DNA of 63,420 nt, filler included, from Folioceros fuciformis (taxonomy: Eukaryota), in NCBI GenBank assembly GCA_049999805.1. It is 6 parts of 6 records of this genome, joined end to end, with 100 filler letters (N's around TTAATTAATTAA, not from the genome) between each part and the next. Parts side by side here need not be neighbours in the genome. Positions count along the whole stretch, not along the records: positions 21,726 to 45,994 come from JBNGIO010001227.1; 5 more parts are not named here. One strand, given 5' to 3'. Numbering within the stretch: the stretch's first letter is position 1; each line of letters opens with the position of its first letter. The notes below the pieces were generated by a model, which searched no databases, was not told where the DNA came from, and was given only the letters and a program-made list of their open reading frames with translations. Positions 9,331 to 58,443 of this stretch are shown here, one piece after another. The translations under genes and the position numbers were made by a program.

Positions 9331-9430
9331 NNNNNNNNNNNNNNNNNNNNNNNNNNNNNNNNNNNNNNNNNNNNTTAATTAATTAANNNNNNNNNNNNNN
9401 NNNNNNNNNNNNNNNNNNNNNNNNNNNNNN
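9331..9430. other. Assembly spacer (N44-TTAATTAATTAA-N44)
   Basis: 100-nt N run with a six-frame stop linker; artificial. Confidence 0.98.
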
Positions 9431-13680: not shown

Positions 13681-15037
13681 GGTGGCGCCCGCTGGGGGCC
13701 GGGACTCTCTTCTCACACCATACGGACTCCAAACGAGCTGATGTACAGTCCGCAAATAACAATCAAAGACGCTTTCAGGTATTATCCGCAGCGGATAATC
13801 CGTCTCCTTCTATAATTGAAGCCGTCCCCACTGGCCTCTCCTGCAGCCTGCAACAATGCTTTAAACATTTCCTCAGACAATGCGAAGGACTGCAGAAACA
13901 GACAGGAGGCGATCTTTCTAAACAAGTCTGACGCAACCGACGTCAGGCAGGCCCATGCCACGAGGATGGATTTTACAGGGCCAACCCATCTTAGGCTGGT
14001 GAGCAGGTTGGACGTTGGGCGACGCCCCTTCCCTGAGACGACTCGAAGCTACAGTACATACTTTCCAGTCCGAGTCCGCGTTTCATCCAAGCGCAGAGGT
14101 GGAGGGGTGTTATTGGTCAGTGGCTGCTGCCCTTTTCACCTACCATGACAGAGCAAGCACACATCTTGGCGCGATCGATGAGGACACCAATGGCCTAGCA
14201 GTGCATGAGGGTCCCTTCTATCCTCCGTGCATGTGGGTCCTTCCTATCCTCTGCGACGCAGAAGATAGAAATGACGCAGGCTCTGCGTCATTTCTATTCT
14301 CTACGAATGGTAACGTGTGATAATCGAGTTGGGCCATTCTTCACAGGAGGATAAGTCCTAGGATGTAAAAAAGCTTCTACAGTACCGTATTCTGCGATGC
14401 CAAAGAAAATGGTTTCAAATGGGTTCCAAGACCGTAAATTGTTTCACAAGACCTGTGATATGTAGACAACTGGTTTCATAACAGTTCCTAGGGAGGCACA
14501 TGGTTTCGCACGAGTCCTTCCCTAGCACGTTTTGCAAAGGATTTGAAAATATTTACAGACTTTGGTGTTTTAATTTGTACATCTCGTGAGGTAATCATTA
14601 GGTCCTCTTTATTTGTCCTTCGCTCATTTGTCCTCGAACAGGTTATTATTTGTTCTAACAACCTGGGCTAGCCGTGAAAATCAGGTGGCCAGGTTTGGCT
14701 CCATCGATCCACTAGTGCATTTGCGGCCATGCTTTATGTATTACATATCATGGCATGTGCACATATATACGGGCACCAGGTATGTATCGTTGTGCGGGGC
14801 ACGGACAGCCGGAGAAAAAGAGCAAGCACGGACAAATCCTACTTTTCCACCGCAAAATAGTGGGCTTAGGATGCAGATCAAGAACGAACTCCCACACTTA
14901 ATTTCAAGGTTTATAGCTTAAGCCACTAGACTACATTACGTACATCTAAAATAAAACAATCAACCTAATTTAGGAACTTTAAACTATAGAAATGGGATGT
15001 GCAATTGGAAAATCCAGCGAAAAGAAATCTAGAATAT

Positions 15038-15108
15038 GGTAACCCATCCCAACACTGATCTGAACTAGGGCTGCTTAATAGCGGAGTTCAAATGGAGAAC
15101 GGTTCATT
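15038..15108 (-). other. 5S rRNA-derived fragment (internal Pol III promoter region), not a full 5S gene
   Basis: Reverse complement AATGAACCGTTCTCCATTTGAACTCCGCTATTAAGCAGCCCTAGTTCAGATCAGTGTTGGGATGGGTTACC aligns without gaps to the middle of plant 5S rRNA (GAACTCCGC, TTAAGC, GGATGGGTgACC), about two-thirds identical by eye against a recalled consensus. Confidence 0.75.
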
Positions 15109-15939
15109 GGCCTCTACAAGCCTCTAGAAGGAATGAGGGACACATTTAAATTATATACAGTGTTGTATAGAAGAAGAAGGAGGATCTATGTGCACTTTGG
15201 TCAGAGGTGCCGATGCCCCGTTCACAGCGATTTCGAGCCAAGGCTGGTCGTGCCTACAGGGCGCCCTTCCTCTGCTAAGATCTAGGCGCCTCAACTCACA
15301 AGAAATTGCTAATTGGAGCCTAATTGGGGAAGATGGGGAGGGGGATTGGAGCTCGGTTGATCTTAGTATCTCTAAATTGGCTCAATTTCCCCCAATCTGC
15401 AAGCGTGTAGGGGGAGAAGGTATTCCCATAGAGGATCTACCCCCTATTACTCAACTTATGCCAAATGATGCCAGAATCGAGCAAACTCCGTCGAGAATTG
15501 AGGTGGATCCAAGGGGTGTGGAAGATTGCAGGATGAGAAGCAATTCTCGGCTAATCTTGACTTGAAATCCACCAAATTCACACATAGGGCTCAGCAGGAG
15601 GAGGCACCCCGGCTCGCTGATCCAGTGCTCGCAGCCGATCACACCTGCTGCAAGTGCTAGAGGTGCAGTGCCGTGACGCAGCAGTGCCCCATAAGCAAGT
15701 GGATCCCAGCGCTCCCGCGAAGTGGTAACCATGCCGAAACGACAAGTTGTCGTTTCGAAGGCAAAACGTTGCCCCGCTTGCAAACTTAAATTGTCTATCC
15801 TGCGTTGAACCGGTTAAGGCCGCCCCAAACGGTGTGAACGATTTGTGCTACCCTTAAAGACGTATTTTTCTCTAACGAGTGATCTAGTCGAAGTATCATA
15901 ATATTTTGACTGCTCGCTCTTCCGTGAAAGTCCTTAAGG

Positions 15940-18081
15940 ATGGCTGCTCAACCACCACCAACACCAACAATCTTCAACATAATGAACGTCAACACTGACT
16001 TCAAGGAGAAGGATCGCTTCAATGGCACAAAATTCGAAGTATGGTCTCGTCGAATGAAGACTGCTTTGAATACTTGGGATTTGCTCCCGATTGTCGAAGG
16101 TACCTTCCCCAAGCCGTCTGGTCCCCAGTCCGCTATTGACGCCTGGGTACGGCAGGACAGACAGGCTATGCATATGCCAATCTCTGGATTAGACGAGGTT
16201 ATCTTATGCCATACTGATGGTGCCATAACCTCTGCTGAAGCTTGGAAGCAACTCATAGATATCTATCAATCTACTAATGTGATGACTCTTGTTACAGTAC
16301 GTTTGGAGTTCTACTCATTACATATGCAACATAACGACAGTGTTGCTCAACACATAAGCAAGTTTAGGTATCTACGCGCTCAACTTGTAGCACTTGGAAC
16401 GGCAATCTCCGAATTTGATGTTGCGGTCCAACTCTTAGCTAGCCTCCCAGCTAGTTATCAAACCTTTGTCTCGTCCCAGAATCAGATGGTGAGAAATGCT
16501 CACCAAGCTATTAGGTCGGGCCAGTCCCGAATATAAATGTGTCAGAGATTGCTGGAGCTCTCCTGCAAGAGGAGGCTGCTAGGTTCAATGCTGGCACATC
16601 TCAATATGGGGGAAAAAGGGTCATGTTTGTGACCAACAGTAGGTCACAACAGAATATAAACAGGAGCTCCCAGGGATCTTTGGGTTCTTCCAAGTCTCCT
16701 AAGGGGACATGTCATTGGTGCCAGATACTTGGCCATTGGGAGAGAGAGTGTCGGAAGAGACAGGCTAGTAAGTCCCACCAGAAGCCAAGGATGGAGAATG
16801 CTGCCGTCGTCTCCAAGGCCAAGACCCACTACCTAGATCAGCCCGACCTCATGCTCTAACCGTGTGTTTGGTGGTTTCTATCTACAGGATCTATGGCTAA
16901 TTGCTTTTGTGGCGTTAGTGCACGATTGTAGCCACAGACACATGTTCACATCATGGCGAAAGATATCGTCTTCGTACGACAAGTCTTGCAAGACAACACG
17001 TTCCGCTTAATTTCGGCTAGGGAGATTGTCTTCTCTACCCGACCTTGCATGCGGTTGTCCGCATCATGTCTTGTACATTTCGTGGGCAAATCTGTTCTTA
17101 CATTTGTTGCCTCACTAATCTAGTGGCATCGATCTTGATAGATGGTCCATTTAGAGGGAGATCGTACCGTGGCGATGCACTTCTCACACTTCCATGTTCT
17201 TGATGCTAGTTGCACTCCTCTTTATAATTGGCTTTTTCACCTCAAGTGTTTCCAATGTTCATAGTTTACGCTCGAGAGGGGCAAGATGAACAAGCCATGA
17301 CGAGGAGTACCGGTGATCTTGCTATCAGGATCATGGTGCCCCGTTACGTTGGTGCGGTACATGGCGTTCCCAAGGCACCTATGGAATAGAAAAAAAAGGA
17401 GTTCAACAAGCCGACTTCGCTACCTCTGAAGACATGCAGATTATCTCTGCTGTAGAGGGAGTTCTATTTACGCTTCCAAAGGGTTACAAACCTGAAGCAG
17501 CTGAGTGGAGTTGTTGGTAATCGGTGATGAATATGATTATTTGGCTTTCTCAGAAAAGTGGTCATTGGAATGGTGGACTATAGATATTGTACGATTTAGG
17601 TGGCTCATTTGGTGGGGCTATCCATTTTTGTTCTGTCACTAGGAGTTGTAAGATGTTGTAGAAAGCTTACTCTTTTCTGGTCACAAAAGTGGTGTTCTTC
17701 TCCACGAGTTGCTGTACACTACAGGCTCACCGCGAGGCAGTTTGACTGACTCTAGGTGATAGCCGAATTGAGCAAGGCTGGAAGCTTGACTACAACAAGA
17801 GTGATCTCCTTTTGTTTAATGGAGCTCTTAGATAACAGCAACCTGCAACGTGTCTGAGAGGGAGAGTTAGAAGAAAAACCACGCTGGTTTTGTACCTTGT
17901 TGGTTAGTCTAACTAGGCCTTAGCTTTAAATGTAGTTAGTTAATTAGCAAGCTAGCGAAAGGACACAACCCTTCGTAACCCTTTAAAAGCCCACCTATGA
18001 ACCTAAACCTTAGTTGATCGTTTATCATTCTTAAAAAAGCATCTGCTTGATGCAAGACGCTTCTGCATGGCATTTCTAACT
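15940..18081 (+). mobile_element. Ty1/Copia LTR retrotransposon copy A, internally deleted: gag plus decayed pol, PPT and 3' LTR (17865..18081)
   Basis: Gag RFNGTKFEVWSRRMKT...LLASLPASY, zinc knuckle CHWCQILGHWEREC. Segment near 17270 matches 23455 of copy C. PPT GAGAGGGAG precedes the LTR. No 5' LTR found. Confidence 0.85.
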
Positions 18082-18222
18082 GTACCAATGTCCTAAAAAA
18101 AGAGCATGTAATTGTCTACCACTGTCCTCTACGTATTTTCTTTGCCACCTCCTACATTTCTCTCTTTTTCTTCTTGGGAGGGAAAAAGAAAGGTCTCAAC
18201 GTAGCTGCATTACTTGGTCCTT

Positions 18223-20590
18223 AGTTAGAACTACATGCGAAAGCATCTTTTGCAAAGATGCTATATTAACAATGATTTAAGTGTGTTTATAGATGAACTT
18301 TTATTGATGGTTATGTACAGGTATGTCCTTTTGCTATCATAGCCAACTACCTATACTAAGTGTAAGGTCTATCTGACTAACCAAATTGGTATAGAACCAA
18401 TGTGGTATGCTATTATTTCTAACTCTCCCTCACATACACATTATCGTTCAGCTCCAAACTAAGAAAAGAAGATCACTAGTAAAAGAAACTGCCACTAAAG
18501 TCTACCATCTTTAGCTTAGCTGTCACATCTTTTGGTCGCACCTCCTAACGTGGAGGCTGTCGTCAATAGCAACTCACGAAGTAGAGCACTAATCATGACC
18601 ATAGCAGAACCAAGTCCTCAACTTAAGCTATCTTTCTAGATGATGGAACAAACATGGAAAGCCTCACCAAGTGAGTGATTTGTCTAGCATCACATAGCTA
18701 CTACAATCTACAAGTCCAAGCCCCTTCACTGTGGAAACAATGGTTAAACTTGGACAAAGACTTTGTCAGAAAATCGGCCATGTCATCATATGTTGATACA
18801 TTCCGTATCTTCACTAAGTTTCTCTCAGATGCATCTCTAACATAATGATGTTGAATCTTAATGCGTTTAGTGCGGGCGTGAAACATAGGGCTAGAAACTA
18901 GGGTGATGGCTGACATATTATCACAATTTATAAGCGTAGGTCATGCTTGTTGCATACCCAAGTCTTTGCACAACTCCCTTTCTTGCATAGCCTCCTTGTA
19001 GCTTTTGTGAGTGCTTTGTACTCCAACTCTATAGAAGATAAAGATATAGAGGCTTGTTTCCTACAAGACTAATTTACAACAGTAGAGCTAGCAAGGAAGC
19101 AATAAGCCAATAGACTCTTTTGGGTGTCTACATCGACATAGTAAGTCAATTGTAGACTCCTTTTGCCACTAGGCTTGTAGCATAGACCATAGTTAGGAGT
19201 ACCTTGGGACCGCATGAAAATGGCGCCCGAGGCCAAGATCATCCACAAACCCAATGGCAATTTTCATGACGTGAACCCCGTAACAACAGATGGAAATGTG
19301 AGGATGCTCACCAAACAAAGAAAGGCGTTTTACCCCTGTACTACATCGAAAGCTTTGGTGATGATGACGTTCAAAGAGAAGAAGGTACATGTCTATGTGT
19401 ACGTTGTCTATTGGAGAAAACGAGGAGATGCCTCCCGCCTCATCGATAGTGTACATAGCAAACGATGGCGTCTATGTAGTGACCGGGTAGTACTAAGTAT
19501 ACGTGCATAGAGGGCTTAACTCAAGTGGGTAAAGGTGAACTAGAAGTACAGGAATTTGCAGCGAACGGGCAAACCTAGTTTCATTCGGTACCACATCATA
19601 TGAAATGACATGAGAATGACAACAAGGTCAATCGTCATACCTCGTTCATCATAAAGAAGTCCACATTCTTGTAGTGATTCTTGGAATTCATGTACACAAA
19701 GATAGATCCACTAGAGCAATCTAGCTTCCTCAAGGTTGATATGTAGCCAGGATTCTCAAGAGGTTCAACTTGGAGAATGCACGAGCAGCTACCACTCCAG
19801 GTGCTGTTGGTGTTAAGCTCTCTTCATTTTCTTGTCCATAGTATGACGAAGCGGAAAAGAAAATGGAGAGGGTATCTTATCGTAGGGCGGTTAGCAGCCT
19901 CATGTTTCTAAGCAACTGGACAAGACCAGACATATCTAATATTGTTAATGTAGTTGCCCAATTCTTTGAGAACCCAGGAAGGGATCATTGGGTTGCACTT
20001 AAAGGAATTATGTGCTAATTAATGTATTTAAATTGATCCAGATCTTTCATTTCAAACTCCTTACTGAGATCAACCTTGATTTAGTTAATCAAATCCACAT
20101 TATTACTGGCGATAACTAAGTCATCCACGTATAACGCTATCAAAACAAGCAAGCTATCCTTTTGTAGCACATGCACATTAGTATTTGCTTCGCTTTACAC
20201 GAACCCAATCTTCTTAACATAAGAGTCAATTCTCTTGTACCATAGTCGAGGACTTTGTTTGAGCTCATAAATAGAACGAAGGAGTTTACACACCTTTTGT
20301 AGGAATCTCTTATCCTCATAATCCTTAGGCGGATCGATGTATAGCTCTTCTTCCAAGTGACCATAGAAAAAAGCTGTACAAACATCCAGCTGATAGATGT
20401 CCAAGTTAAGTTTAGCACATAAAGCAAGGAGTACTCTTATTGAAGCTATTTTGACAACAGTTGAGTAGACCTGATCGCCTTGAAAGTCGACTCCCTCTTT
20501 TTTACTATAGCCCTTGACCACTAGCCTCGCTTTACAACGTATGTGAGGCTCAACCTCTTGAAACTTTGTTTTGAGTACCCACTTGCACTA
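18223..20590 (-). mobile_element. Ty1/Copia copy B (same family), RT/RNase H remnant with 3' LTR 18223..18424 and an internal inversion
   Basis: Minus-strand RT (VKGYSKKEGVDF, YQLDVCTAFFYGHLEEE, ALYVDDL) and RNase H (MSAITLVSSPMFHARTKRIKIQHHYVRD). PPT GAGGGAG followed by AGTTAGAA. Confidence 0.88.
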
Positions 20591-21625
20591 GTGCATGCAT
20601 CACTATGAAAATTGGGACGAATTCTTAACTCTATGACCTCAGGCCACTTGAGCAATATGGTGGCATAAAATTGGAATTAGCACCCCCTCTTGATGGTGGC
20701 TTTCACACTTCTTGAGCTAGGACATGTCTTTGGCCTCATTGACAGATCCACAAAGTTGGAGGGTTCAGCACATTGACCTCGAAAGTTAGTTGGTCCACAT
20801 TGACAATGGTACACCACACATTCAAATACATGTGTGGGCCTTATAACGTTCTTGGGAGCTTCCTTCAAAATCCAAAGATAGTGACCCAAACGAGAACACT
20901 AGCTTATGTCGTCGCCATAAGCTCGGCGACGACATAAGCTAGTGTTCTCGTATGTTGAGCCCTTGGACATGCCCTTTATTATTCTTAGGACATTGCGTAT
21001 GACATAGGGTGTGTGGGAAAGGAGTGGTGTTGACCTTTGACACTTTGGGTACTTGTTCAGAGAATGGGTAGTAATGGAGGGAGAGAGTAGAGAATTACAA
21101 AGGGAGAGAGTGGAGTTAACTCTTGAGGTACCAAGCGTCTCAATCTCCAAAGCGATAAATGCATCGGAGATGATCCATTATCCGTGGCATGTGCTACTCA
21201 TGCCTTCGTTCTCTATATGTCCCTCACCATATCTTTCAACCTCACTTCTATTTTGCCATGTGCAAAACACATGACCTTCCACCTCCAGCACTACCCGCTT
21301 CAAATGTTGTTCGTGTTGTTCATATTTCTCAAATGCCGCCTTCCACTTCAATTTGAACACTAAAACGCGCTATCTACACAGGCTGGCCATTGTCTCCAAC
21401 AACCACGAGGATGCACGACCTGGAATTGACAATCGGCAGAGTGTTACTCACAGGGTGGTTTGGGAGGGCTATTATGGGCAGCATGCCCCTACACGGTGGT
21501 TTGGGGGGTGCTACGGGCAGCACACGCTCACACGATGCTTTGGATGCACAACCTAGAATTTAGGATTAGTAGAGCGTGTTCACACCATGGTTTGGAGGGG
21601 TGCTGTGGGCAACGCACCTTCACAC

Positions 21626-21725
21626 NNNNNNNNNNNNNNNNNNNNNNNNNNNNNNNNNNNNNNNNNNNNTTAATTAATTAANNNNNNNNNNNNNNNNNNN
21701 NNNNNNNNNNNNNNNNNNNNNNNNN
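21626..21725. other. Assembly spacer
   Basis: N run with TTAATTAATTAA. Confidence 0.98.
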
Positions 21726-24700
21726 ATTCAACAAGCGCAGGAACCCAAATGCCAATCGTCGGCCTTCTACTCTTGGTACCACCTCCTCTGGGCCTTCTAC
21801 ATCAAATTCTTCCTCAACTCCTAGACGTAAAGGGACATGTAATTGGTGCAAAGCCCAAGGACACTTGGAGCAGGAATGCCGTAAGAAGAAGGCTGGTGAG
21901 CCCAAGCTGGACACCAAAACCGCTAACACAGTGGTTGTTACTAAAGCAAGGCATAATTCCAAGACCGACATTGCTTTAATAGTTTGTTTGGTTGCATCTG
22001 AGTATAAATCTTCTTGGCTGCTCGACTCTGCAGCTTCTACTCACATATGCAGCCACAAATACATGTTTACGACATATTCGGCGGCTGATGCTCTTCATTG
22101 CTTTGTTCTCCTTGGCAATGACTCTGGCCTCTCCATAGCGTGCATTGGCTCAGTGACTTTCGAATTGGAAGATGGTTCTTCCCTTCTACTCACTGATGCG
22201 TTGCATGTACCTCAGATGGCCAAGAATTTAATTTCCATTCGTCACTCACTCGGTCTATTCATCCGGGCCGTGTTATTGCACGAGGCCATCCTCGCCATGA
22301 TTTATATGTCTTCACCGGTAAGCCCATGTTGGCAGTGTTGGCTCCACCGGCGGCTGTTGCTTTGGCTACCATCGATAGGGGGAGCTCACGTCATGGTGAT
22401 GCTTTTCTCTAGCACTCTACGCTTGGCCACATCAATTATTCCAAGCTTTTAGAGATGTCTAAGCAAGATTTGTTTAGGGATTGGCTACCTACTTTTACAA
22501 AGACGCCACCGTTGTGTGAATCTTGTATTTATGCTAAGCAACGCAGCTCTCCGTATCCTGATCTTCCTGCACGTCGGGCTACTCAACCCTTGGAGCTTTT
22601 CCACATTAATCTTTGTGGGCCACTCCCCGTCCCTTCACTTGGCGGGGCTAATCACTTTATGATTGTTGTGGATGACTTCAGTCGTTATACTTTTGCTTAC
22701 CCGCTTTATTTGAAGAGTGACTCCTTTGGTGTATTTTCTCCCTTTGTTACTATGGCCAAGCTGCAAATTGGTTGTAAGTTGCGGTGCATTAGATCTAACA
22801 ATGTTGGGGAACCTAACAATCACCAATTTAAGGACTTTTGTCAAGAGAGGGGATCCTTCGTCAATTTACGGTTCCCTATACCTCCCAGCAGAATGGAGTT
22901 GCGGAAAAAGCAATGGTGATCTCTTGGCCATGGCGCGAGCCATGCTCGCCAAGTCTGGAAGACTTGGCGATGCTCGGCTTGCCAAGTCTTTCCAAGTCCG
23001 TTACTAGCCAGACTCCTTATGAGTGCTGGCATGGGAGTAAACCCCTTATCTCTCATCTTTGTATCTTTGGATGCCCTGCCTATGCCCATATCCCTTCTCA
23101 GCTTCGAGACAAGCTCTCTGCTCATGCTCATAGGTTGGTATTTGTGGGCTATGGCAAGGATCGCAAGGCATACAAGCTAGTGGACTTGAATACACACACT
23201 CCGACGTATGCACACATTGTCACCTTTGATGAGTCCCGGCTAGCACATCTTGGACCTACTTCTTCGGCTCCTGGTCCTACCCTAGATGGTGCTTCTATCT
23301 CTGGCTCTAGTAGCCCTCGATGGCCTGGTGACATTCACTTTGAGTTTCATACTCAACCCTTCACTTTTCCTGACTCAGGTGTTCCTGTTTATGGTTCTGT
23401 TCCTACTTCGCCTTTGGCTTCTTCACCTCAAGCCGGTCCTATTCCCATAGTTTGTGCTCGAGAGGGGGAAGATGAACAAGCCATAGGGTTGCCCATGGAT
23501 GAACCATTGGAAAATGAGGATGACTCCTTTGGTGTTCTTGAGAATCAAGCATCAGAGACACCGGTATCTCCACATTCCCAACCAAGCCCTGACCCTATTT
23601 CTAAGCGTAGGTATCCCTTGCGTCAGCGACAACCACGTCACCTATGGAATGAAATATCCTCTGACTTGGAGTTCAATCAAGCCGGCTATACTACCACTTC
23701 TGAAGGTCACTTTGATGCTTTTAGTACTGCTCTTTCAAAGGGAGATCCTCTCACTCTGCAGGAGGCATACTCACGACTTGATGCAGCTAAGTGGAAGTTT
23801 GCCGTTGATGATGAATATAATTCCCTTATTAAAAACAACACGTGGACTCTGGTCAATCTACCCAGGGGCAGGACAACTGTTAAATACAAGTGGGTTCTCA
23901 AAACTAAGTCCCAGGAGGTTGAGCCTCGTATCCGCCACAAGGCAAGATTGGTGGCTAAGGGGTATAGTCAGAAAGAGGGAGTAGATTACCAAGGCGACAA
24001 AGTTTACTCACTCGTCGTCAAAGCTGCTTCCGTAAGAATGCTTCTAGCGTTATGTGTTGAGCTTAACTTGGAAATTTATCAGCTTGACGTTTGTACGGCC
24101 TCTCTTTATGGTCACCTTAAAGAGGAGATCTACATGGATCAACCAAAGGATTATGAAGATAAGAACTTCCCTCACAAGGTGTGTAAACTACTCCGCTAAA
24201 TATGTGGACTTAAGCAAAGCCCGCGCTCATGGTACGAGAGAATGAATTCTTATCTCAAGAAGTTGGGGTTCATCCAAAGTGAAGCAGATACTAACATCTG
24301 TGTACTTTGTCAGGATAGCTCACTTGTACTTATTGCCCTATATGTCGATGACTTAGTCATTTCAAGCAATAATGTTGATTTGGTCAACAAGATAAAAGCA
24401 GATTTGAGTAAAGAATTCGAGATGAAGAATCTCAGCAAAGTTAAGTATATTCTTGGAATGCATGTACATAGAGATAGCACTGGAGCTATTTATCTTCATC
24501 AAGGATGATATGTAGGTGGTATGCTAAAACACTTCAACTTGGAGAACGCACGAGCGATAGCCACACCAGGTGCCGTTGGTGTTAAGCTCTCATCTGCTTC
24601 CTGCCCTCAGTTAGAAGAGGACAAGAAGGAGATGGAGACTGTGCCCTACCGCACGAGAGTGGAACTCTCATGTTCTTGAGTAATCAAACAAGACCAGACA

Positions 24701-25816
24701 TCTCAAACACCGTAAATGCTATTGCTCAGTTCTCAGACAATCTAGGGAGGGATCACTAGGTTGCTCTCAAACGCATCATGCGGTATCTCAAGGGTACTCA
24801 AAATTATGGCCTATGCTACAAACCTAGCGGAAAGAAGCACCTCCTGCTTACATGTTATGTGGATGCAGATTGGGCTTCAAACGCTGACACTCGGAAAAGT
24901 ATCTCAGCATATTGCTTTCTTGCTGGCTCCACTATTGTTAATCGGTCTTGTAGAAAACAAGCTGCCATATCACTTTCATCAACAGATTCGGAGTACAAGG
25001 CTCTCATTGAAGCCACTAAAGAGGCTGAATGGGAAAGGAAGCTACGTGAGGATCTAGGTATGACACAAGAAGGGCCAACAATACTTGATTATGATAATAT
25101 GTCAGCAATTTCTTTAGTTGCTAACCCCGTGTTCCATGCACACACGAAACACATAAAGATTCAACATCACTATATCCATAATGCTGTAGAAAGGGGCATA
25201 GTAAAGGTACAGTATGTACCACCAGACGACAACACAACAAATGTGCTGACTAAATCCTTGCCCAAGTTTAAACATTGCTTCCACAAAGAAGGGCTTGGAT
25301 TAGTAGACTGTAGTAGCTTAATGACGCTAGACAAGTCACTCATATGGTGAGGCTTATCATCTTCTGTTCCATCACTTGAAGTTGACAGTTGTTGCAAATA
25401 GCTTGCTTCTGCCCTGGCCATAACCGGTGTCCTACTTTGTGAGCCGCTGGTGAGCTAGCCTTAGCACGAGGGAGTTTGACCGCGAGTTGAGATAGGCTAG
25501 TGGAAGACTATAGCACATTGCAAGACTCCGACAACGTAGTCTCCTTTTGTTTTACGGAGATCTCAGATAACTCAACGTGTCTGAGAGGGAGAGTTGGAAA
25601 TAGAGCAGACGGCGTTGGTTAAGGTCAACTAGACCAGACCCAATGTGGATTAGTCAAACTAGACTCAGCTAGTTGGCAGTTAGTTAACTATCAGGCTAGT
25701 GAAAGGACACACCCCCTCGTGACCATCCTTTATAAGCCCACCTATGAACTGAACATATTATTAGTTAATAAAACATCTGCTCGATGCAAGACGCTTCCGC
25801 ATGTGCATCTCTAACT
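21726..25816 (+). mobile_element. Ty1/Copia copy C, near-complete but frameshifted gag-pol with 3' LTR 25592..25816
   Basis: Order is zinc knuckle (CNWCKAQGHLEQEC), protease (WLLDSAASTH), integrase (CESCIYAKQ, VDDFSRY, QQNGVAE), RT (KARLVAKGYSQKEGVDY, LYVDDL), RNase H (YVDADWA, DNMSAI), PPT, LTR. The 5' end is lost in the spacer. Confidence 0.95.
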
Positions 25817-25861
25817 CACATTTGCTCACAAATGGCTGCTTTCCCTAAGCTCCCAAGCACC

Positions 25862-26170
25862 TGAGGACTTAAAGTGGTTGCATGTCGCATGGTAACTAAG
25901 AGTACTTGCATGCACCTTGGTGCCTTAGAGTGCCTACATGCCACTTGGAGACTAAGAGTGCTTGCATGCAATCTGGTGACTTGGAGTTCTTGCATGCAGC
26001 TTGGTTTAGCAGGTCCCCTGCCCCGGACCTCCTACCAAACCTGATGGTTCAGTACCAAACCACCTCTATCCCTTGATAGATCCATCCCACTTCTATTCCT
26101 TGGATGGATCCTCACCACTTCTATCTCCTGAATAGACCCATAAGACTTCTATCCCTCGGACAGATGCTTC
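25862..26170. repeat. Two degenerate ~28-bp tandem arrays
   Basis: About five units like GGTAACTAAGAGTACTTGCATGCACCTT (25862..26005), then about four units like CACTTCTATCCCTTGGATAGATCC (26060..26170). Confidence 0.7.
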
Positions 26171-26443
26171 TCCTTACCATGCGTGAACACCCCACTCACA
26201 TATATGGCCGCTGAAAAATAGAAATAGAAAATAGAAACAAAAAGGAACCAACCTTCCCTTTACTAGCCGCATTTGTACAAATTGTACCCAAATTAGAACA
26301 TTGGCCCGAAATTCTATGTTCCATAGAGATTTCTGTCAATCAATGCCATAAAGATAAAGAAGTTGGCGAACTTGAAAAGGAAACCTGATGAGACTACGCT
26401 TATGTTTTATAACCGGACTAGTTAGTGGATAATAGATACAGGA

Positions 26444-29400
26444 ATGCATAATGAGATGGAAGTATGCTTTAAACACATTTGTAATTTGGATGAAGACATA
26501 AGGAAGGATGTTTTTAAAGAGCTAACATCATTGCATGGAAAAACAAATACGCTGGATCAAGTTTTTCCAATTGTAGAAAAGCATGAGCAGGCTAGGGCAT
26601 TGTTGAACGCTATGGGTAGAAAAGTTGGGGTAGATAAAAAGGAGGTTTCTTTTCTACAATGACACCCCGACATAATTATTTGCCTAGATGGAGACCAGGT
26701 TAGCAACAACAAATAAATTCCTCAAGAATGGATAACAGATATACGAAGCCTATCATGAATGTGGAATCGGTCAAGGGGATAAAGTGTTTGAGACTTGGAA
26801 GTAGCACACATGTGATGATGGAGTGCATGGTTAAGAAAGATGTAAGTTGTAACCACTGTGGGAAGAAAAGACATTGACGAGGCTAAGGCTTACAAGGAAT
26901 TCCAATTGGATGCATTTGTGTGTGAAGTGGACTTCGAGAGGATAGTGAATGTGGAGGCAGTACAGAAGAGAGTCAAAACAAGATTTTGGAGACGAAGGCA
27001 AGGATCATGGGAGGACATGTGCATCGGGATGAAAGTATCCAGAGTCATTTGAAGTTATGGGCATGGATGACTTTACTATGAAGATAAAGGATAGAGCAAC
27101 AAAGGTGGTGGATCAACAAGGAAGTAGAAAGGCACAAGCCCTGCAAGTGGACATGGTGTTTTGTGTTAGGAATATGTTGGAGTTATGTATTAAAGCAAGA
27201 ATAATTGGAGTGAAAATTTGAGAACTTTTACAGGAAAAAGTTGCTTTTCAATATAAGGATAGAGATGGACTAAGCAAAACTGTGGCATTCTGTGTAGACA
27301 ATGATCAAAGAAGTTATGAACAGAGAGCGAAAGTTAAGCCATAAATTGCATTTTTGGATAATAGCAAGTATGACTTTTTTATAGGTGGTTTTGCATTAGG
27401 GAAAGTATTGATTGATTCAGGAGCCTAGCCTACTCTGATACATTTTGGCACAACATATGCTATGAGGTTGAGAGGATGGAATATACAGAGGCTAAATGGA
27501 AAATTAGAATGGCCAATAGAGGGTTGGAGGCAGTAATGGGGGAGACAAAGGAAAAGTTGCAATTGTGTTTTAAACCTGGAACAAAAGAAGCGATAACAAC
27601 GAAGATGAAGTGCTTAATTGTTAAGTCTAGGAACTTTGATGTTATTATAGGGACGAAGACTCAATTCATACCAAGAGGAGGCGTGGATTTGTGGATAAAG
27701 GAATATTACTATCGCCATGGTTGGCAACAAGGAGATGGAGTGAACCTGGCAACAATCCCACTTATGTTGCATATATAGGAGGATGGAAAAAATATGTGTG
27801 TGGTGAACATGACAACTTCTTTAGAAGGACAAGATGAAGCAGATGAAGAAGACAAGCTGTGGGTTAGGCATCATATGTGTAAATTGTATTCTAAAAGAGT
27901 GTAGTAACGACAAGTTGGAAGAGGATTCGATGAGAGCGGGTGTTAGTAGAGCATGAGCTGAAATTTTTAGAGAGCTTGAAAAACGACAAATTGAGTTTCA
28001 TGTATATGATAAGATTCAACCTTGTACAAAGGAGATAGTCTATAAGTTGGAACCTATTTGTAATAAACTTGTGTCTTTGAGTTCATCCATGTATTCATGG
28101 TTGAGCTATTTGCTGGAATTGCATATGGTTTGGAGGTTGTGTTGGCTGTTGGCTATGTGGTTAAGCGCTACATTTATTGTGATCTGAATGAAGTTTGTCA
28201 GACAATTGCAAAGGCTAGGTTGTTTAAGCTATGCAAGAAGTATCCAAAGTAGTTGAAAGTTGAGGATGTAAACAATCGTTTCCTACTTGGCCACAAGATG
28301 TTAGGCTCATTGGGTTGACATAATTTATATGGTATAGGAAATTGATCTTACAGTTGCAAGTTGGGAGTGTCAAGGGCTCTCAATGGCAGGAAAAGCAAAG
28401 AGGTGATCGGATTTATAGATCCGCATTATTTTATGAGCTAATAAGAATTTTTAATTTTTATACAAGAACTTTGAAAGAAAGAATGTGAGTATTTGATTGA
28501 GAATGTGGACTCACAGATGGACAAAAGGCTAACAATGAGACATGATTTGAAGATTATTTGGGAGAACTTATAGAGTTGGATGGGGTGCAAGTTGGATCAA
28601 CATCTGGATTTTCAGTGGGATGTTTCTAAGGAAATGAATGTTAATAACAAGGATGACTTCGCAAAGATTCTAGATGATACAAGGCAAGTGTTTGCTTTCT
28701 CCAATAAAGAATTGGGTACACATAAGACGTTTACGTTTAAAATTTGATTTAAAACTTCAGGGCTAGTTTTTAGGAGGCCATACTGCCTGAGTAAGATAGA
28801 GAATGAGATTATAAACAAAAATGTTAGGAGTTTTTGGAGGCGGGATTGATCAAGTTCTCGAAGTCAGAGTACGTAGCATCTTCAATACTTCCACCCAAAA
28901 ACGATGTATATAGTAATTGGACAAAGAAGAGGATGTGTGGGGATTATAAGCCGTTTAATGAGCTAACATCTATGGATAGATTCCCAATACCAACTCTAAA
29001 GGAAGTTTTTGAAACAATTGGGGATTGTAAGATATTTCAACATTGGACTTGAGGGGTGGTTTTAATCAAATAGAGATAGAGGAGGAGGATAAGAAGAAGA
29101 TTGCTTTTTGTGGCAATAGATGCTTATGGGAGTGGATTGTTATTCCGTTTGGATTAAAGAATGCTCATAGTGCTTTTCAGAGGGTGATGAATCATGTCTT
29201 GAGAGGGCTATCTTTTGCTAGATGTTACATAGATCATTTCATAATTTTCAGCAACAATATTGAGGAGCATAAAGAACATGTTAGATTGGTGTTAGACAGG
29301 TTAATGAAGGTGGGTGTGACGTGTCACCCACAGAAGTGCAAATTTGGATCCTCCATGATAACATATTTAGGCCATTTAATAATCCTTAGGGATACAACGC

Positions 29401-29530
29401 CTTGTGATGGTAAGGTGGAAGCAGTGCAAAGATGACTCCACCTTTAGATGTTAAGACCTTGCGTTCATTCTTGGGATTGCTAAATTATTATTGCAATTTT
29501 GTAGCAAACCATAGTGTGGTGGTGAACCTA
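26444..29530 (+). mobile_element. Degenerate Ty3/Gypsy retrotransposon: gag zinc knuckle, aspartic protease, DNA methyltransferase, reverse transcriptase
   Basis: CNHCGKKRH at ~26847; GKVLIDSGA*PTLI at ~27399; RT from ~28770 (FRRPY, KKRMCGDYKPFN, DLRGGFNQIEI, IPFGLKNA, YIDHFIIFS, KCKFG, FLGLLNYY). Many stops and frameshifts; left boundary approximate; no integrase or LTR identified. Confidence 0.88.
28079..28602 (+). pseudogene. C5 DNA cytosine methyltransferase domain (retrotransposon-borne), frameshifted and C-terminally deleted
   Basis: Manual translation: motif I VELFAGIAYG (28100), motif II RYIYCDLNE, motif III-like WPQDVR, motif IV IDLTVASWECQGLSMAGK (28341), motif V RSALFYELIRI, motif VI YLIENV (28499), start of VIII ELDGVQVGS (~28573). 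Order and spacing are correct. Confidence 0.88.
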
Positions 29531-31326
29531 TGACAATGCAAGATTATACACCTATATTAATATAGGGGCTGACCATCCCATGTACACATGAATTCATGCT
29601 AAGTATAATATATAAAAAGTATATATGCTAAGTTTAGACAATCTTAGGGTTAAGGAAATTTACATGTTGAAAGACAAGATCTCTTGGAGCAAGCATAGCC
29701 CTCAGTGTCCCAATTGCCTTTGGTGATTTGTTTCCCTCTTTAAGAGTATATAGATTTTCCCATCTTATTTTTCTAAAATAAATAGGAGATTCTTCGACTT
29801 ATCATAAACTCACAAGAGAAGTTTATCATGAGTAGTAAAGAACGGAATGAAATGACGACGAATAAATTTAATTATTTTACTAAATAAAAATAGCTATAAA
29901 AATTCTATTTTATCATATATGATAGCTGCATTGGACCAACCGTCTATGCTTTGTGGCAACAATAATGGTCATAATGTAAACCCACCTCATATGGCAACCA
30001 TGTTGAGAGGGATCCCTGACCCGGGGGATGGCTGCGGGTGGCATAGAAGACTGTAGAAGTTGAGTGGTAGGGCGGGACTCCCGCCTGTCTCGTGTGCAAG
30101 GCATGGACGAAAAGCATCGTAGGTCGTTGTACAACAGAACGCCTTAGAGTTCAGAGAAGAGAGTTACTTTTAATAAATTGTACTTATGACCGATGGGGGG
30201 AGGGTTCAAGGATTCCGATTTGAGCGGCTTGTGACAACCCTTTGAGCGTTAAAGCCTAGAATTTAAATGATAACAAACGAGGACAACCAAAACTTTTGAT
30301 AGAAAAGGTATCGATTTGGAAGCAAAATTTCAGAATTTCGACCAAGAGGCCCGAAAGCCGGTCAGTGTCGGCTTGAGGTTCTTCCGAGTAAACTTGGATG
30401 AAAGATGTGACAATTGTCAGGGCCTGAGTGGGTCCCGGGAAAACCCTACGTACACTCTTGGGCACGGACGTGAAATGCACGGGGTTTAGGTATGAAGTGC
30501 CCTATAAGGCTAAGTTCTACGGAACCTGCACCGATAACAGAGTACTGCTCTTCCCCGCGCCGCACTTCTTAGCAGAACACTCGTTCTTGCACGCCTGATC
30601 GCTTCTTAACCTCTGCCCTCGGGCCTTCCCGCACGCCGGATTCTGTCCTGCTATGGCACTGTTAGGATGGATTAGCTGTCCAAGAGTCTCAAAATTTTAG
30701 ATTCGGTAGGGAATTTCTGTACCCATCGCCCTGGTTTGATTTGAGTTCCTGTGGAATCGACCTTCCACTCAGGTGCCTGGGCAGCGCGGCTAGGCTGGAA
30801 CGTGCGGGGAAGCTACGGAATGCGGGATTTGAACGATGATTTTGACGGACTCCTATGTGGCTGGGATGCTGGTACGTTGATGTGATGGAGCCCTGAACTC
30901 GTTCTACCGGAAATGAGTGGAATGTCGTTTTTCTGCCGGTGCTAGTAAAGTCTGTCTCTTTGGTCTGTCTCTTGATTGGATCAATGACGCTGCTTTCCGC
31001 CATGGACGGTTTACTAGATCCCTCTTTAGCGAGCTTTGTATTATTAAGTCTGCATGTGCCTCGATGCAGCAGGTAGAAGGGCTGCTAGTTGGTTAGCTCG
31101 GGCTGTTCATCTTCGGTATTAGCTTTTTGTTCTGGGTACACCTTCCTAATTGAGGGGAGACAGTACAGGATTCGAAGTTCACGAACGCTTAGCGTTGATT
31201 GTGGTGCGTCCAGGTTACATTGTAGCTCATCGGCAGCTTATCCATTCCACGGAAACAAACATGAAGTCTGTGTAGGGCAGGTCTCTTACCTTGCTTGTGG
31301 AGGTGGGGTTTGAAGGATCAGTTACC

Positions 31327-34300
31327 ATGTCTTCTTTGAGCAGGGAGCTCGTTTTTCTTATCCTTCAGTTCTTGGATGAAGAGAAGTTCAAGGAAACTGT
31401 GCACAAGTAAGTGTCGAACTGTTCTGAGCGGACTGGAAATGTCTTATACCTTAGTGTCTCTGCGATGGGTCACGCAGGTCCTGTGTAGAGTGTTCGCTGT
31501 GCCCGTAATATGTTTTCTTTATTGCTGGTAGGCTTGAACAAGAGTCAGGCTTCTTCTTCAATATGAAGTACTTTGAGGACCAAGTGCAGGCAGGAGAGTG
31601 GGACGAGGTTGAACGTTATCTTTCAGGCTTTACAAAAGTTGATGACAATCGTTATTCCATGAAAATCTTTTTTGAGATACGGAAGCAGAAGTACCTGGAA
31701 GCGTTGGACAAGTATGTCTTAAGCATATACAATTCCAAGTCGTTTCAATGACTGCTATCATTTTTTCGAGATTTCCGTTCACTTGAGTGTCATTATGTCG
31801 ATTCCAGGCAAGATCGTGCCAAGGCTGTTGACATTCTGGTTAAGGATCTAAAGGTTTTTTCCTCATTCAATGAGGAGCTCTACAAGGAGATCACTCAGCT
31901 GCTAACGCTTGAAAATTTCAGGTTTATGTCTACTTTTGTCTACGTGATTTTTTTCTGCTCTGGATCATTCTTTCTTTGTATTCCCTTTTAACTTAAGTGG
32001 CTCACAGAGAAAATGAGCAGCTTTCGAAGTATGGAGACACAAAATCTGCCAGGAACATAATGCTGCTGGAGTTGAAAAAGCTAATAGAAGCGAATCCGCT
32101 GTTTCGGGACAAACTGGCGTTCCCTCCACTGAAAGCCTCCCGACTTCGGACTCTGATCAACCAAAGGTAGCTTTTGCCGACCAACCCTTATGCTGAAAGG
32201 TTTTGAGTTTCGCTGGTTTTATTAACTTTTGCAAGTTTGGTGTACGGTTATTCTGGTATGCTCGATTTTTGTCATGCTTTGGTGATGCCCTTGTTCATGC
32301 GATATTTTCCTTGTCTCGTTTCGCTCGTAACCGAACTGCATTGGTGACTTCTGAATGTTGCATTGTCAGCTTGAATTGGCAGCATCAGCTGTGCAAGAAC
32401 CCACGCACAAATCCTGACATCAAGACTTTGTTTGTGGATCATACTTGTGGCCCCCCAAATGGTGCGCGACCGGCTGCAACTGTCAACAATCCCCTTGTTG
32501 GGATTCAAGGGAAGGGAGGAGGCTTTCCACCGTTAGGAGGTCATAGTGTGCGTGTCCATCAGACTAAGTTGCCATTGAATTTCACGCTGTTTCAGAGTTA
32601 TTGCAGGGTGTCCCTCGCCTTGGCTTCTAGTAGGTCTAGGTTCAACAGTCTTACCCTCCCTGTTCTGAACAGCCGTTCCAGCCGACTGCAGCTCCAGCTG
32701 CCAGTGCTTTAGCGGGTTGGATGGCAAATTCGAATTCGAATCCAGCCGCTCCCCATGTAGCTCCTGGTCCAGCTCCACTCTCAGCTCCACCCAATCCAGG
32801 TTTGACTTGTTGCTTGGATCTCTAGCCTGCCCTCAGCTTTGCTTGCGTAGGTCTTGGATCGTTAGGTTGCTCCGTCATTCATTTGTTGCCATGTTGCATA
32901 AAATCGTTTTACTTCTTAAGTGTCGTTCTTAACAGCTGCTTTGCTCAAGCGTCCAAGAACACCTCCTCCGAATATGCCGACTGTGGATTATCAGTCTGCT
33001 GATTCTGAGCACCTGATGAAGCGGCCCAGACAGCAGGGAGGAGACGAGGTGAGCGAAGTCGAATTCCGTGAAGTGGGAGTTCATGGCCCTTGGAACAATT
33101 GTGCACAATTGAGTGTTGTTTTTTTTTGGTTGGTTCACAGGTCAACTACACTGGGTCAACTCATGCACAAAATTCATACTCACCTGATGACCTTCCTAAA
33201 ACAGTGGCCCGGACTTTGAACCAAGGCTCTTGTGTCATGAGCATGGATTTTCATCCACTGCAGCAGACGATATTGTTGGGTGAAGCTCTTTCGCGCATGA
33301 GGGAGCTACCAAAAGTTCATGGGTTCTTCTTTCTGAATTTTGAATTAAGTGTGGAATATTGTTGGCAGTTGGTACAAATGTTGGGGACATCGGCGTCTGG
33401 GAAGTAGGCTCCCGAGAGCGTCTTGCTCAAAGGACTTTCAAGGTTTGGGACATTTCTGCCTGCACGATGCCCATGCAGGTGAGTTGCCTCGTCTTTGTGG
33501 GTTCATTTGCAGGGGTGGCTTTTTTGGAGTGAATTGGGCCCATTTAATTATGAGCTGGTTATTTATACAGGCTGCATTAGTGAAGGATCCACAAGTCTCA
33601 GTGAACAGGACTGTGTGGAGCCCAGATGGGCAGCTATTGGGTATATACCTTTTCTGTGCAGATCTTTCCTGGCATCTGTGTTATGTCCTCCGTTTTTTGT
33701 GACGGTTTAGGGTTGAGACATATTGACAATCTCTTAGTTCTGGAGGGATTGTGAGTCTAAAACATTGGCACCATTGGTACAGGTGTTGCCTTTTCCAAAC
33801 ACATCGTTCATATTTATTCTTACCATGGTGGTAGTGATGTTCGTCAACATCTGGAGGTATCCTGTTCTTTCGGGGTGGATTATCATTTGTGTTCATTGCT
33901 ATGCTCAGACGAGCCTGCCAGGGACTGAGTATTCATACGTTGACCATGAGTGACGTGTTTCGCTTGATCACCAGATTGATGCACATGTTGGTGGTGTGAA
34001 TGACCTTGCATTTTCTCATCCAAACAAGCAGCTGTGTGTCATAACATGTGGAGATGACAAGACGATCAAGGTTTGCCCTTGAGTGTAGATAGTTGAAGGT
34101 GGTTGACTGCTGTAGAATGTCAGCAGAGGCAGTAGTTGATGGCCTATTTCGTGAAATATGTTTTAGGTCTGGGATGCTGCAAGTGGACGCAGACAGTACA
34201 CTTTTGAGGGGCATGAAGCGCCAGTGTATTCTGTCTGTCCTCATCAAAAGGAGAGCATTCAGGTGTGCCCCCTGAACTGTGGCTACTGTTCAGCCGGCTT

Positions 34301-45994: not shown

Positions 45995-46094
45995 NNNNNN
46001 NNNNNNNNNNNNNNNNNNNNNNNNNNNNNNNNNNNNNNTTAATTAATTAANNNNNNNNNNNNNNNNNNNNNNNNNNNNNNNNNNNNNNNNNNNN
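45995..46094. other. Assembly spacer
   Basis: N run with TTAATTAATTAA. Confidence 0.98.
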
Positions 46095-51555: not shown

Positions 51556-53007
51556 GGTGGGCACCCGTGACAGAGGATCAACTCCTCTGTGCCTGGGACA
51601 GGTATGGGGAGTGTCTTCCTCAGGAAGGGCACCATAAGAGCACCAGTACCTGAGGACCTTCACCCGCGCACATGCAGGGGAAGGAAGAAGGACAAAAAGA
51701 AGGAGACGAAAGCGGGAGAAGGAAGGGAAGGCGAAAGCGGAGCAAAGAAGGAGAGCTGTCCCGGAGGCGCCGTTCCCTGGTGCCGGGGAGGAAACCAGTC
51801 TACATACGAGGTAGGCTGTGAAGACACAGAAGATATCCCGCCACCCTCCTCCCACACCTTTCTGCCCTCCCTACCTACAGATCCTTGTACCGCATTTTCT
51901 CACAGGTACACAGTCCTGCAAAGCAAGGCAGCCGCGAGATGTGAAAAAGCTATGCGGAAACCCGTCCCAAGAAGTGCGCAAGCGTGAGGAGAAGCGCAGT
52001 CATGGCAATTCCCCTGACCGCGACCAGGACCACCACACGCACCCTCTCTCTCACACTGTCAAGCACCCACAACGCTCGCAAGGACCCAAACGCCAAAAGC
52101 CCACCCCATTGACACAATGCAGACAAGCCGTAATGAGGAGCGGGAAGCAAGAGCCGGCGCCAGGCCGCTCACCAATTGCCACGAACAGGCACGCAGGCCG
52201 GAGCCCGGGTCGGGCCCGGGCGGTGGCGGTGGCGCGGGCAGGGTAGCGCGATCAGGGGCAGATCCGGGAGCCGGAATTCGGCGGCAGCAGAGGCGGGAGG
52301 GCAGGGCGGAGGGGGCAATTGAGGAGCGAGCAGGGAGGAGGCGGGCAGTGGCAGGCGCGCATACAGGCAGCGGCAGACGCAGTGGCATTGAATGGCGGGG
52401 AGCAAGAGACGGGGTCTTTATGACCTCACACACTGTCACACACCTGCTGCTTGTGCTGGTGTCCGTCCTTGCGCAGCGGCCTTCCCTAGGGCGCTGCGAG
52501 CTCCTGCTCCTCCAGCCGCAGCTGCAGCACTGTCTTCTGCGGAGCCCAGCCGAGCCCAGCGCAGTCCAGGAGAGCGCCAGCCTCTACGGCCCTCTGCCTC
52601 GGCCTCGGCCTCTGCCTCTGCGGCCCTCTGCCTCTGCCTTCACCTCGACTTCGGCTTCGGCCTTGCTCGCTCACTCGCTCCCAGGCCAGGCGTCAGCAAT
52701 GAATGCTCACCTCATGCTCTTCAACAGGCGCTAGCGGGGGCCAGACGCCCCCCGCCCTCTCCACGGCAGCCGAGGAACGCCAAGCCCGGGCGCTCCCGCC
52801 CTCGCTCCTGCTGCTGTGCTCGCGACTCCCAAGTCGTCTCAACTCGATACGGCTCGACTCGTCTCGTCTCGTCTCACCCCCTGCCCGGTGCTCACTTTAC
52901 TTCACTGCTTCACGCTACGCTGTGATCACATCACGTCACATCACCGGCTCGCCTTTCCCGGATGACCGGCTGCACCGGATAGGCCGAGCACTGCGCAGCT
53001 GTCACCA

Positions 53008-53107
53008 NNNNNNNNNNNNNNNNNNNNNNNNNNNNNNNNNNNNNNNNNNNNTTAATTAATTAANNNNNNNNNNNNNNNNNNNNNNNNNNNNNNNNNNNNN
53101 NNNNNNN
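53008..53107. other. Assembly spacer
   Basis: N run with TTAATTAATTAA. Confidence 0.98.
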
Positions 53108-58343: not shown

Positions 58344-58443
58344 NNNNNNNNNNNNNNNNNNNNNNNNNNNNNNNNNNNNNNNNNNNNTTAATTAATTAAN
58401 NNNNNNNNNNNNNNNNNNNNNNNNNNNNNNNNNNNNNNNNNNN
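58344..58443. other. Assembly spacer
   Basis: N run with TTAATTAATTAA. Confidence 0.98.

Follow-up and report, generated by a model that had tools for sequence, protein, structure and literature searches.

The window, that is, the whole stretch of DNA analysed here, is 63,420 nucleotides (nt) long and comes from Folioceros fuciformis (GenBank assembly GCA_049999805.1). From about 26324 to 29540 on its plus strand runs a dead fragment of a Gypsy-type retrotransposon, whose domains, all co-oriented on the one strand, include the remains of a C5 cytosine DNA methyltransferase (DNMT) between a protease (PR) and a reverse transcriptase (RT). The fragment probably starts just after 26323, since many look-alike contigs in the sequencing runs cease to match the window at this position.

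Broken parts of the Gypsy fragment

The following features were recognised, with their evidence in brackets:

26426-27049, plus strand: gag-like open pieces of the Gypsy fragment (open frames)
26704-26874, plus strand: weak CCHC-like stretch within the gag-like region (zf-CCHC_5, E 0.061, Pfam)
27345-27775, plus strand: retropepsin (aspartic protease) in two frames, with LIDSGA at 27408-27425 (homology to the protease of relatives)
27776-28090, plus strand: linker from protease to DNMT, about 105 codons (no family match)
28091-28626, plus strand: decayed N-terminal half of a Dnmt3-type C5 methyltransferase homologue, from motif I to the start of motif VIII (positions 12-191 of a 340-position family profile)
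28602-28616, plus strand: approximate junction at which about 0.7 kb is gone relative to lineage-B relatives (spacing, profile)
28616-29539, plus strand: Gypsy-type RT in three frames, ending abruptly (tblastn with residues 38-346 of protein P0001)
29540-29800, no strand assigned: AT-rich repeated sequence behind the RT (summed contig depth of 55.6 at 29601-29800)

A first-pass annotation of this DNA, made from the sequence alone, had placed a gag CCHC knuckle upstream of the protease; a stretch resembling one does lie there, as the weak match listed above. The protease is identified by its relatives: window positions 27488-27772 are 33-35% identical to loci L002, L004, L005 and L007 of the family described below, and 27557-27772 match residues 4-73 of protein P0030. 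The stretch of L004 aligned to the window protease overlaps a Pfam gag-asp_proteas match (4.5e-7), and no Pfam family was found on the window protease piece alone. The end of the protease and motif I are separated by 319 nt in the window, compared with 307 nt in L002 and some 124 residues in P0030. The RT contains a Pfam RVT_1 match at 29031-29432 on the plus strand (5.3e-23), and the RTs nearest to it carry RT_RNaseH, Integrase_H2C2 and rve domains. Unique DNA begins at about 29801, from which position the summed depth is 9.05.

The methyltransferase is broken into open pieces on the plus strand, each named here by the motif or peptide that it encodes:

28067-28249, plus strand: motif I, FAGIAYG, and motif II, YCD
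28264-28320, plus strand: WPQDVR
28338-28403, plus strand: WECQGLSMAG, including the catalytic cysteine
28402-28485, plus strand: RSALFYELIRI
28475-28570, plus strand: YLIENV
28546-28626, plus strand: ELDGVQVGS

These pieces are co-linear over three frames, and the path that joins them takes five frame changes and one in-frame stop, as expected from the first-pass annotation, which had described a domain interrupted by stops and frameshifts. Every peptide that it quoted as a C5 methyltransferase motif is present, co-linear and on the plus strand. Motifs I (FAGIAYG), IV (WECQG) and VI (IENV) follow each other in order over 28097-28510; the motif names were taken from alignment to DNMT3A, plus recall.

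Only the first half of the domain has survived. Profile positions beyond 191 of 340 are absent from all six frames of the whole window, and with them are gone the rest of motif VIII (RxR), the target-recognition region, motifs IX and X and the linker to the RT, although the rest of the domain is kept in 11 long relatives and in loci L001-L004. Between motif I and the first anchor of the RT lie 737 nt in the window and 1473 nt in L002; this difference in spacing, together with the lack of late profile positions, indicates that about 0.7 kb is missing.

The decay extends to the remainder of the element. Neither RNase H nor integrase lies behind the RT, where homology stops at 29539, and the C-terminal PHD finger that relatives carry is absent from the window copy. 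No direct repeats flank the fragment in a search of 14000-32000 supplemented with blastn, in which neither terminal repeats nor a target site duplication were found, and the window holds no second copy of the element or of the DNMT. The copy is dead and unable to make the enzyme. The first-pass annotation had called it so, and the loss of the C-terminal half of the DNMT, of RNase H, of the integrase and of terminal repeats makes it more so than was claimed. The GC content of the window is lowest at 26001-30000 (0.36-0.40), with a G-over-C skew of +0.25 on the plus strand. Within the fragment the observed/expected ratio of CpG is 0.38 and GC is 0.38, against a GC of 0.45-0.54 in neighbouring elements and genes. 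The low GC and CpG and the skew are in keeping with an A/G-rich coding strand that has decayed over a long time through methylation.

Homology of the methyltransferase domain

The search for homologues was seeded with the 61-residue piece that carries motif I. An exhaustive phmmer search of 1.84 billion representative proteins returned 33 relatives at E <= 1e-3 (best 4e-8), which are 35-54% identical to the piece over its residues 9-60. In the PDB, all eight matches of the same piece were to DNMT3A, at the start of the catalytic domain (residues 9-45, each with an E of about 0.9). When 21 of the relatives were scanned with Pfam, the cut-off of PF00145 was passed by seven (P0026, at 6.3e-11, P0034, P0031, P0044, P0028, P0059 and P0061, the last three forming one 90% cluster), and five further ones matched the family below it. 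Moreover, a motif IV stretch in 10 of the 33 relatives aligns to window positions 28311-28412 with 46-72% identity, in a frame other than that of motif I.

A family profile of 340 positions, built from the domain segments of the 33 relatives, matched a read-through of the window with X at the breaks over positions 12-191 with 134.1 bits, and with 45.2 bits when the piece that had seeded the search was left out. The raw frames of 28250-28640 scored 19.3, 14.6 and 7.4 bits (sum 41.3). Shuffled sequences reached at most 5.2 bits (1000 mononucleotide shuffles) and 8.1 bits (1000 neighbour-preserving shuffles), none of the 2000 attaining the raw-frame score. This control and the database E-values exclude chance as the source of the motifs.

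Several searches gave results that run counter to this assignment. Pfam found PF00145 in none of five DNMT pieces (19-61 residues) and in none of three whole frames with X at the stops. In the PDB, neither the motif IV piece nor the two whole frames with the remaining motifs matched a DNMT, and a word-index search with the 61-residue piece against longer proteins listed 32 candidates, none at E <= 1. The silence of Pfam is attributed to the fragmentation of the window copy, given that the same piece has relatives that do pass PF00145. The first-pass annotation had named the lack of a significant PF00145 match as a refutation; formally this lack holds for the raw pieces and frames, and the match was obtained through the relatives, in seven of the 21 scanned.

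The type of methyltransferase was assessed with a profile of 12 relatives (alignment A1) compared with the PDB, where the E-values were as follows:

DNMT3A: 4e-17
DNMT3B: 4e-14
DNMT3C: 2.8e-13
M.HhaI: 4e-7
Tobacco DRM (NtDRM): 7e-7
DNMT2: 3.8e-3
DRM2: 7e-3

These comparisons of sequence establish the window domain as a homologue of Dnmt3-type C5 methyltransferases, with the motifs in ordinary order and without the rearrangement characteristic of DRM proteins. The alignment of the profile to DNMT3A runs from motif I to motif VIII. The catalytic cysteine is invariant in all 12 aligned relatives, and the 11 long relatives keep motif I, the ENx of motif VI, the AHRxRN of motif VIII and stretches matching motifs IX and X. 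In most C5 methyltransferases the residue before the catalytic cysteine is a proline. In the present family it is a glutamate in most relatives and a proline in two, the residues found overall being E, P, S, D or N. The element-borne domain differs from the host enzymes DNMT3A, DNMT3B and DRM2 in this glutamate, carried by most of its members, in the absence of PWWP and ADD domains and of introns, in its location within Pol and, with respect to DRM2, in not being rearranged.

Relatives, Pol architectures and trees

The relatives comprise proteins and loci, the latter from one metagenome scan in which 203 of 596 pattern matches encode relatives. Eighty of these loci were kept and seven (L001-L007, E <= 9e-35) analysed; the other 73 (L008-L080, E >= 5e-11) resemble ordinary short methyltransferase matches and were set aside. 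Two orders of domains occur. In order A, RT-RNase H-DNMT-integrase-PHD, the DNMT follows RNase H (P0061, of 3105 residues, P0037, P0041, P0053 and others, and loci L001 and L006). In order B, PR-DNMT-RT-RNase H-integrase-PHD, found by tblastn in L002, L004 and L007, it precedes the RT; the PR-DNMT order was also seen in L005, L003 and P0030. With gag included, the full order in the relatives is gag-PR-DNMT-RT-RNase H-integrase-PHD. The Pfam matches of L004 reproduce this series, with a protease (4.5e-7), PF00145 (1.3e-10), RVT_1 (5.9e-28) and an integrase in that order, and nine flanking and internal open reading frames (ORFs) of L004 matched no Pfam family. Protein P0002 has RT-RNase H-integrase-PHD with no DNMT between RNase H and integrase, which agrees with the prediction from order B. 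A G-patch lies between DNMT and integrase in two elements of the order-A lineage (P0039, residues 600-635, 2.7e-8; P0041, residues 1534-1569, 1.6e-8).

The DNMT domain of the PR-DNMT loci bears the mark of purifying selection, dN/dS being 0.21-0.42 in all ten pairs among L002-L005 and L007, each copy now having 0-6 stops. Their ends carry repeats of an unusual layout. The arrangement B-A-B is found at the 3' end of L002, L003 and L007, and a 5' A without a preceding B in L002 and L007, so that the layout A-coding-B-A-B is complete in these two loci; L004 shows the 5' A together with a single 3' B. The corresponding split direct repeats lie at 159-439 and 8092-8728 in L002, at 733-1022 and 11180-11824 in L007 and at 7022-7664 in L003. 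Such repeats are DIRS-like and unlike ordinary long terminal repeats (LTRs), yet these elements encode a DDE integrase.

Trees were calculated for both domains, with 33 rows each; from the DNMT tree, eight of the 33 relatives were dropped, their domain segments being shorter than 95 residues. A split with support of 99/98 divides the DNMT tree into seven order-B rows with five of unknown order on one side, and 13 order-A rows with eight of unknown order on the other. The window lies on the order-B side, where none of the 13 order-A rows is found, and groups with P0030 and P0044 (85/75). In the RT tree, a single clade (100/99) unites ten DNMT-bearing rows with P0001 and P0002 and excludes the 21 other Gypsy RTs, and within this clade order A (99/98) is separated from a group of order B, the window, P0001 and P0002 (95/89). 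The first-pass annotation had located the methyltransferase between retropepsin and Gypsy RT in this single copy. That location is native to the lineage, shared with P0030, L002, L004, L005 and L007 and consistent with both trees.

The order-A elements (P0061, P0037, P0041, L001, L006) can be regarded as a sister lineage. They share with the order-B elements the Dnmt3-type domain, 35-54% identical in its first 50 residues, the same RT clade and the same C-terminal PHD finger; they differ in carrying the DNMT after RNase H instead of before the RT, and fall on the opposite side of well-supported branches in both trees. Because the DNMT and RT trees are congruent, they suggest one old acquisition of the DNMT followed by a move within Pol, a single acquisition that we infer from trees unrooted with respect to host DNMTs.

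Look-alikes of the fragment were sought among the contigs of the sequencing runs holding the locus, aligned at 80% likeness to window positions 25401-31400. Run X1 yielded 392 contigs, of which 37 are at least 99% alike, 45 at 95-99%, 103 at 90-95% and 207 below 90% (355 under 99%). The summed contig depth in X1 cannot be read as a copy number; it indicates no more than the presence of look-alikes of the DNMT segment elsewhere in these runs. It is distributed as follows:

26401-27600 (gag-PR): 56-119
27601-27800: 18
27801-28600 (DNMT): 69-172
28601-28800: 38
28801-29600 (RT): 86-114
29801 onward: 9.05

Other copies differ from the window by single-base lengths at three places within 28269-28448, and therefore not all of the breaks are common to the copies. 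Run X4 holds only matches of 70 nt and 35 nt to the element, at 84-86% likeness, and gives nothing firm on expression. Run X3, which shares its sample with X1 and X2, departs from the window mainly by C>T (304 places, against 29 of T>C) and G>A (105 places) and contains only 5% of the words of 25401-31400. It has the appearance of a bisulfite or enzymatically converted library, a kind that could reveal directly how the element is methylated. The seven listed conversions exclusive to X3 are all in the CHH context and are uninformative, since 78% of the cytosines of the element are CHH.

Host, known elements and possible role

An ORF at 49306-51600 on the minus strand, in a single exon, encodes a DELLA N-terminal domain (3.5e-17) and a GRAS domain (1.2e-126). 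To our knowledge, the DELLA domain occurs in land plants only. Among named relatives, those most similar to the encoded protein are from the lycophyte Diphasiastrum (68%), Marchantia (68%), Ginkgo (67%) and Physcomitrium (60%), and a Protein Atlas comparison of the gene went no further than Streptophyta; the top-scoring match is a protein labelled Tanacetum, with 56% identity, and no database protein exceeds 68% identity in the best local alignment. A TOPLESS-type CTLH domain is encoded at 31509-31748 (5.6e-27), and a GH32 invertase and other plant genes are also present in the window. A spliced, RNA-type contig of run X4 shows that the 5' untranslated region (UTR) of the TOPLESS-like gene includes an exon at 30522-30870, followed by a GT..AG intron of 342 nt, after which the gene resumes at 31213. 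In run X1, a contig of 3254 nt spans 29497-31400, identical to the window throughout, and joins the end of the RT to unique DNA upstream of TOPLESS; X1 may be the source of the assembly itself, and this bridge is not independent of it. The host is a land plant, since the same window encodes both DELLA and TOPLESS, and the first-pass annotation was right in taking it for one.

An element of the same kind has been described in an alga. KnitGypsy-Dnmt3 of Klebsormidium nitens is a Gypsy LTR element with an intronless, non-rearranged Dnmt3 domain in its Pol ORF (de Mendoza et al. 2018, PMC5890265; this and the following statements from that paper refer to the part of its text available to us). It resembles the lineage described here in carrying a Dnmt3-type domain of ordinary motif order within a Gypsy Pol, and in showing purifying selection (Ka/Ks < 0.2, against the dN/dS range given above for L002-L005 and L007). 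Its repeats, according to the paper, are arranged as in DIRS elements, to be compared with the A-coding-B-A-B layout of L002 and L007, which are relatives of the truncated window copy. It differs in its host, an alga and not a land plant, and the window copy differs from it in being broken and without half of the domain; the two were compared by description. More distant parallels are the SymbioDIRS-Dnmt3 and SymbioLINE-Dnmt elements of Symbiodinium, which also bear a cytosine methyltransferase in a retrotransposon Pol and of which SymbioDIRS-Dnmt3 is likewise of Dnmt3 type, with two domain orders coexisting (PMC5890265). These are DIRS elements with a tyrosine recombinase and a LINE, in a host of another kingdom, and their capture of the domain was judged by the authors to be an independent acquisition (PMC5890265). 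A 2026 preprint, in the part available, lists 'streptophytes (Gypsy-DNMT3)' among elements previously described. Apart from Klebsormidium and this mention of streptophytes, a full-text literature search, which left most subscription journals outside its reach, returned no Gypsy-borne Dnmt3. Because Gypsy-Dnmt3 appears in this searched literature only from Klebsormidium, one streptophyte alga, the fragment is a further member of an already known kind, from a group of hosts new to it.

In our view the fragment is very probably a dead, truncated Ty3/Gypsy copy in a land plant, derived from a lineage that encodes a Dnmt3-type DNMT between protease and RT. A number of results weigh against this. 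Between the window and the complete PR-DNMT-RT loci, identity in the DNMT piece is no more than 30-36%, and the window has a long branch (1.54) in the DNMT tree. An RT-based search of 5.8 billion proteins gave 24 matches, the best 48% identical and none listed with PF00145, and a search of these 24 with the DNMT profile found none. Among the matches there is no close family member from a named organism; the DNMT relatives all derive from unnamed assemblies and metagenomes, and the occurrence in land plants is documented for one genome. In addition, the depth in X1 falls to 18 and 38 at the two margins of the DNMT block, and does not show both DNMT junctions to be common to other copies. These dips would suit an order private to this copy, arisen either by rearrangement of an RT-RNase H-DNMT-integrase element or by insertion of a host DNMT3 fragment into an ordinary Gypsy element, as would the truncation of the DNMT exactly where the RT starts and the RT-RNase H-DNMT-integrase-PHD order of most of the long relatives found first. 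Such an origin is nevertheless very improbable: five relatives share the PR-to-DNMT order with near-equal spacing, and the two trees contradict it by placing the window, at 99/98 and 95/89, with PR-DNMT elements and away from every RNase H-DNMT-integrase row of the DNMT tree. Contamination of the contig, or of part of it, with algal DNA could be invoked given the algal host in print, and a chance origin of the motifs given the silence of Pfam on the raw pieces. Both are hardly credible in view of the DELLA, TOPLESS, GH32 invertase and other plant genes of the same 63 kb, of the contig that joins RT and TOPLESS upstream DNA, even from a run that is not independent, and of the shuffle control and database E-values. 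A further question is how long the lineage has resided in land plants. A horizontal arrival from an alga or another eukaryote would agree with the lack of a close relative from a named land plant, with the modest identity of the best RT match, with the unnamed sources of the DNMT relatives and with the streptophyte alga as sole published host. It seems improbable to us. The copy is old and decayed and its look-alikes range from less than 90% to more than 99% likeness, both of which fit long residence, although they leave the arrival undated.

As to function, the copy in the window shows neither activity, nor an intact element, nor the route by which the lineage entered the plant; catalysis and self-methylation by the lineage, and the seeding of host methylation that the first-pass annotation had suggested, are what we infer from the family. 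The Pol of living members would be translated as one polyprotein, from which the methyltransferase would be released or in which it would remain joined to the RT. It could then methylate the new cDNA of the element or DNA near the integration site, and new copies would therefore arrive already marked with host-like methylation. Self-marking by a retrotransposon DNMT was proposed by de Mendoza et al. 2018 (PMC5890265). For the present lineage, the mechanistic step itself is possible but doubtful. The only published test of a Gypsy-Dnmt3 domain, that of Klebsormidium expressed in yeast, detected no methylation (PMC5890265), and the glutamate in place of proline in most relatives speaks in the same direction. 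Alternatively, the domain may be a true relative of Dnmt3 that does not work as a DNA methyltransferase and instead binds DNA, S-adenosylmethionine or chromatin, or methylates RNA; the negative yeast test and the variable residue before the catalytic cysteine would then be readily understood. This seems unlikely, if still worth keeping in mind, because the cysteine is invariant, the 11 long relatives retain the ENx and AHRxRN motifs and the stretches resembling IX and X, and the domain has evolved under constraint. Moreover, the yeast result was called inconclusive by its authors, human DNMT3B having failed in the same assay, and the SymbioDIRS-Dnmt3 domains did methylate CG in yeast (PMC5890265).

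The relic shows that the lineage reached embryophytes. The existence of two sister lineages distinguished by the position of the DNMT, the congruence of their trees and the presence of PHD in both are points not contained in the portions of the literature available to us. It may further be speculated, as an unlikely proposition, that land plants contain a Gypsy lineage, still alive or alive until recently, which has its own DNMT before the RT, a PHD linked to the integrase and DIRS-like repeats and which methylates its own cDNA or landing site, and that both orders stem from one ancient capture and a move within Pol. If this were true, the transposon itself, instead of the host, would set part of the methylation found on elements of this type in early-diverging land plants. 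Plants silence transposons mainly by cytosine methylation, and a transposon with a de novo methyltransferase would thus turn the usual roles around. Intact copies, if they exist in this or related plants, would provide a land-plant system in which self-written methylation could be tested. The consequence for the present locus is small, as the dead fragment ends about 1 kb upstream of the 5' UTR exon of TOPLESS.

Other retroelements surround the fragment. Adjoining it upstream, a Copia-type element at 21682-25350 on the plus strand has integrase, RVT_2 (2.2e-30) and RNase H-like pieces, and a second Copia-type element further upstream, at 15928-20587, is partly 70-83% alike. A gag-like retroelement region at 42456-44470 on the minus strand, with zf-CCHC (1.9e-5) and a protease-like ORF, is unrelated to the Gypsy-Dnmt3 fragment. 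Paired runs of 44 N, separated by 12 bases, occur at 9331-9430, 21626-21725, 45995-46094, 53008-53107 and 58344-58443.

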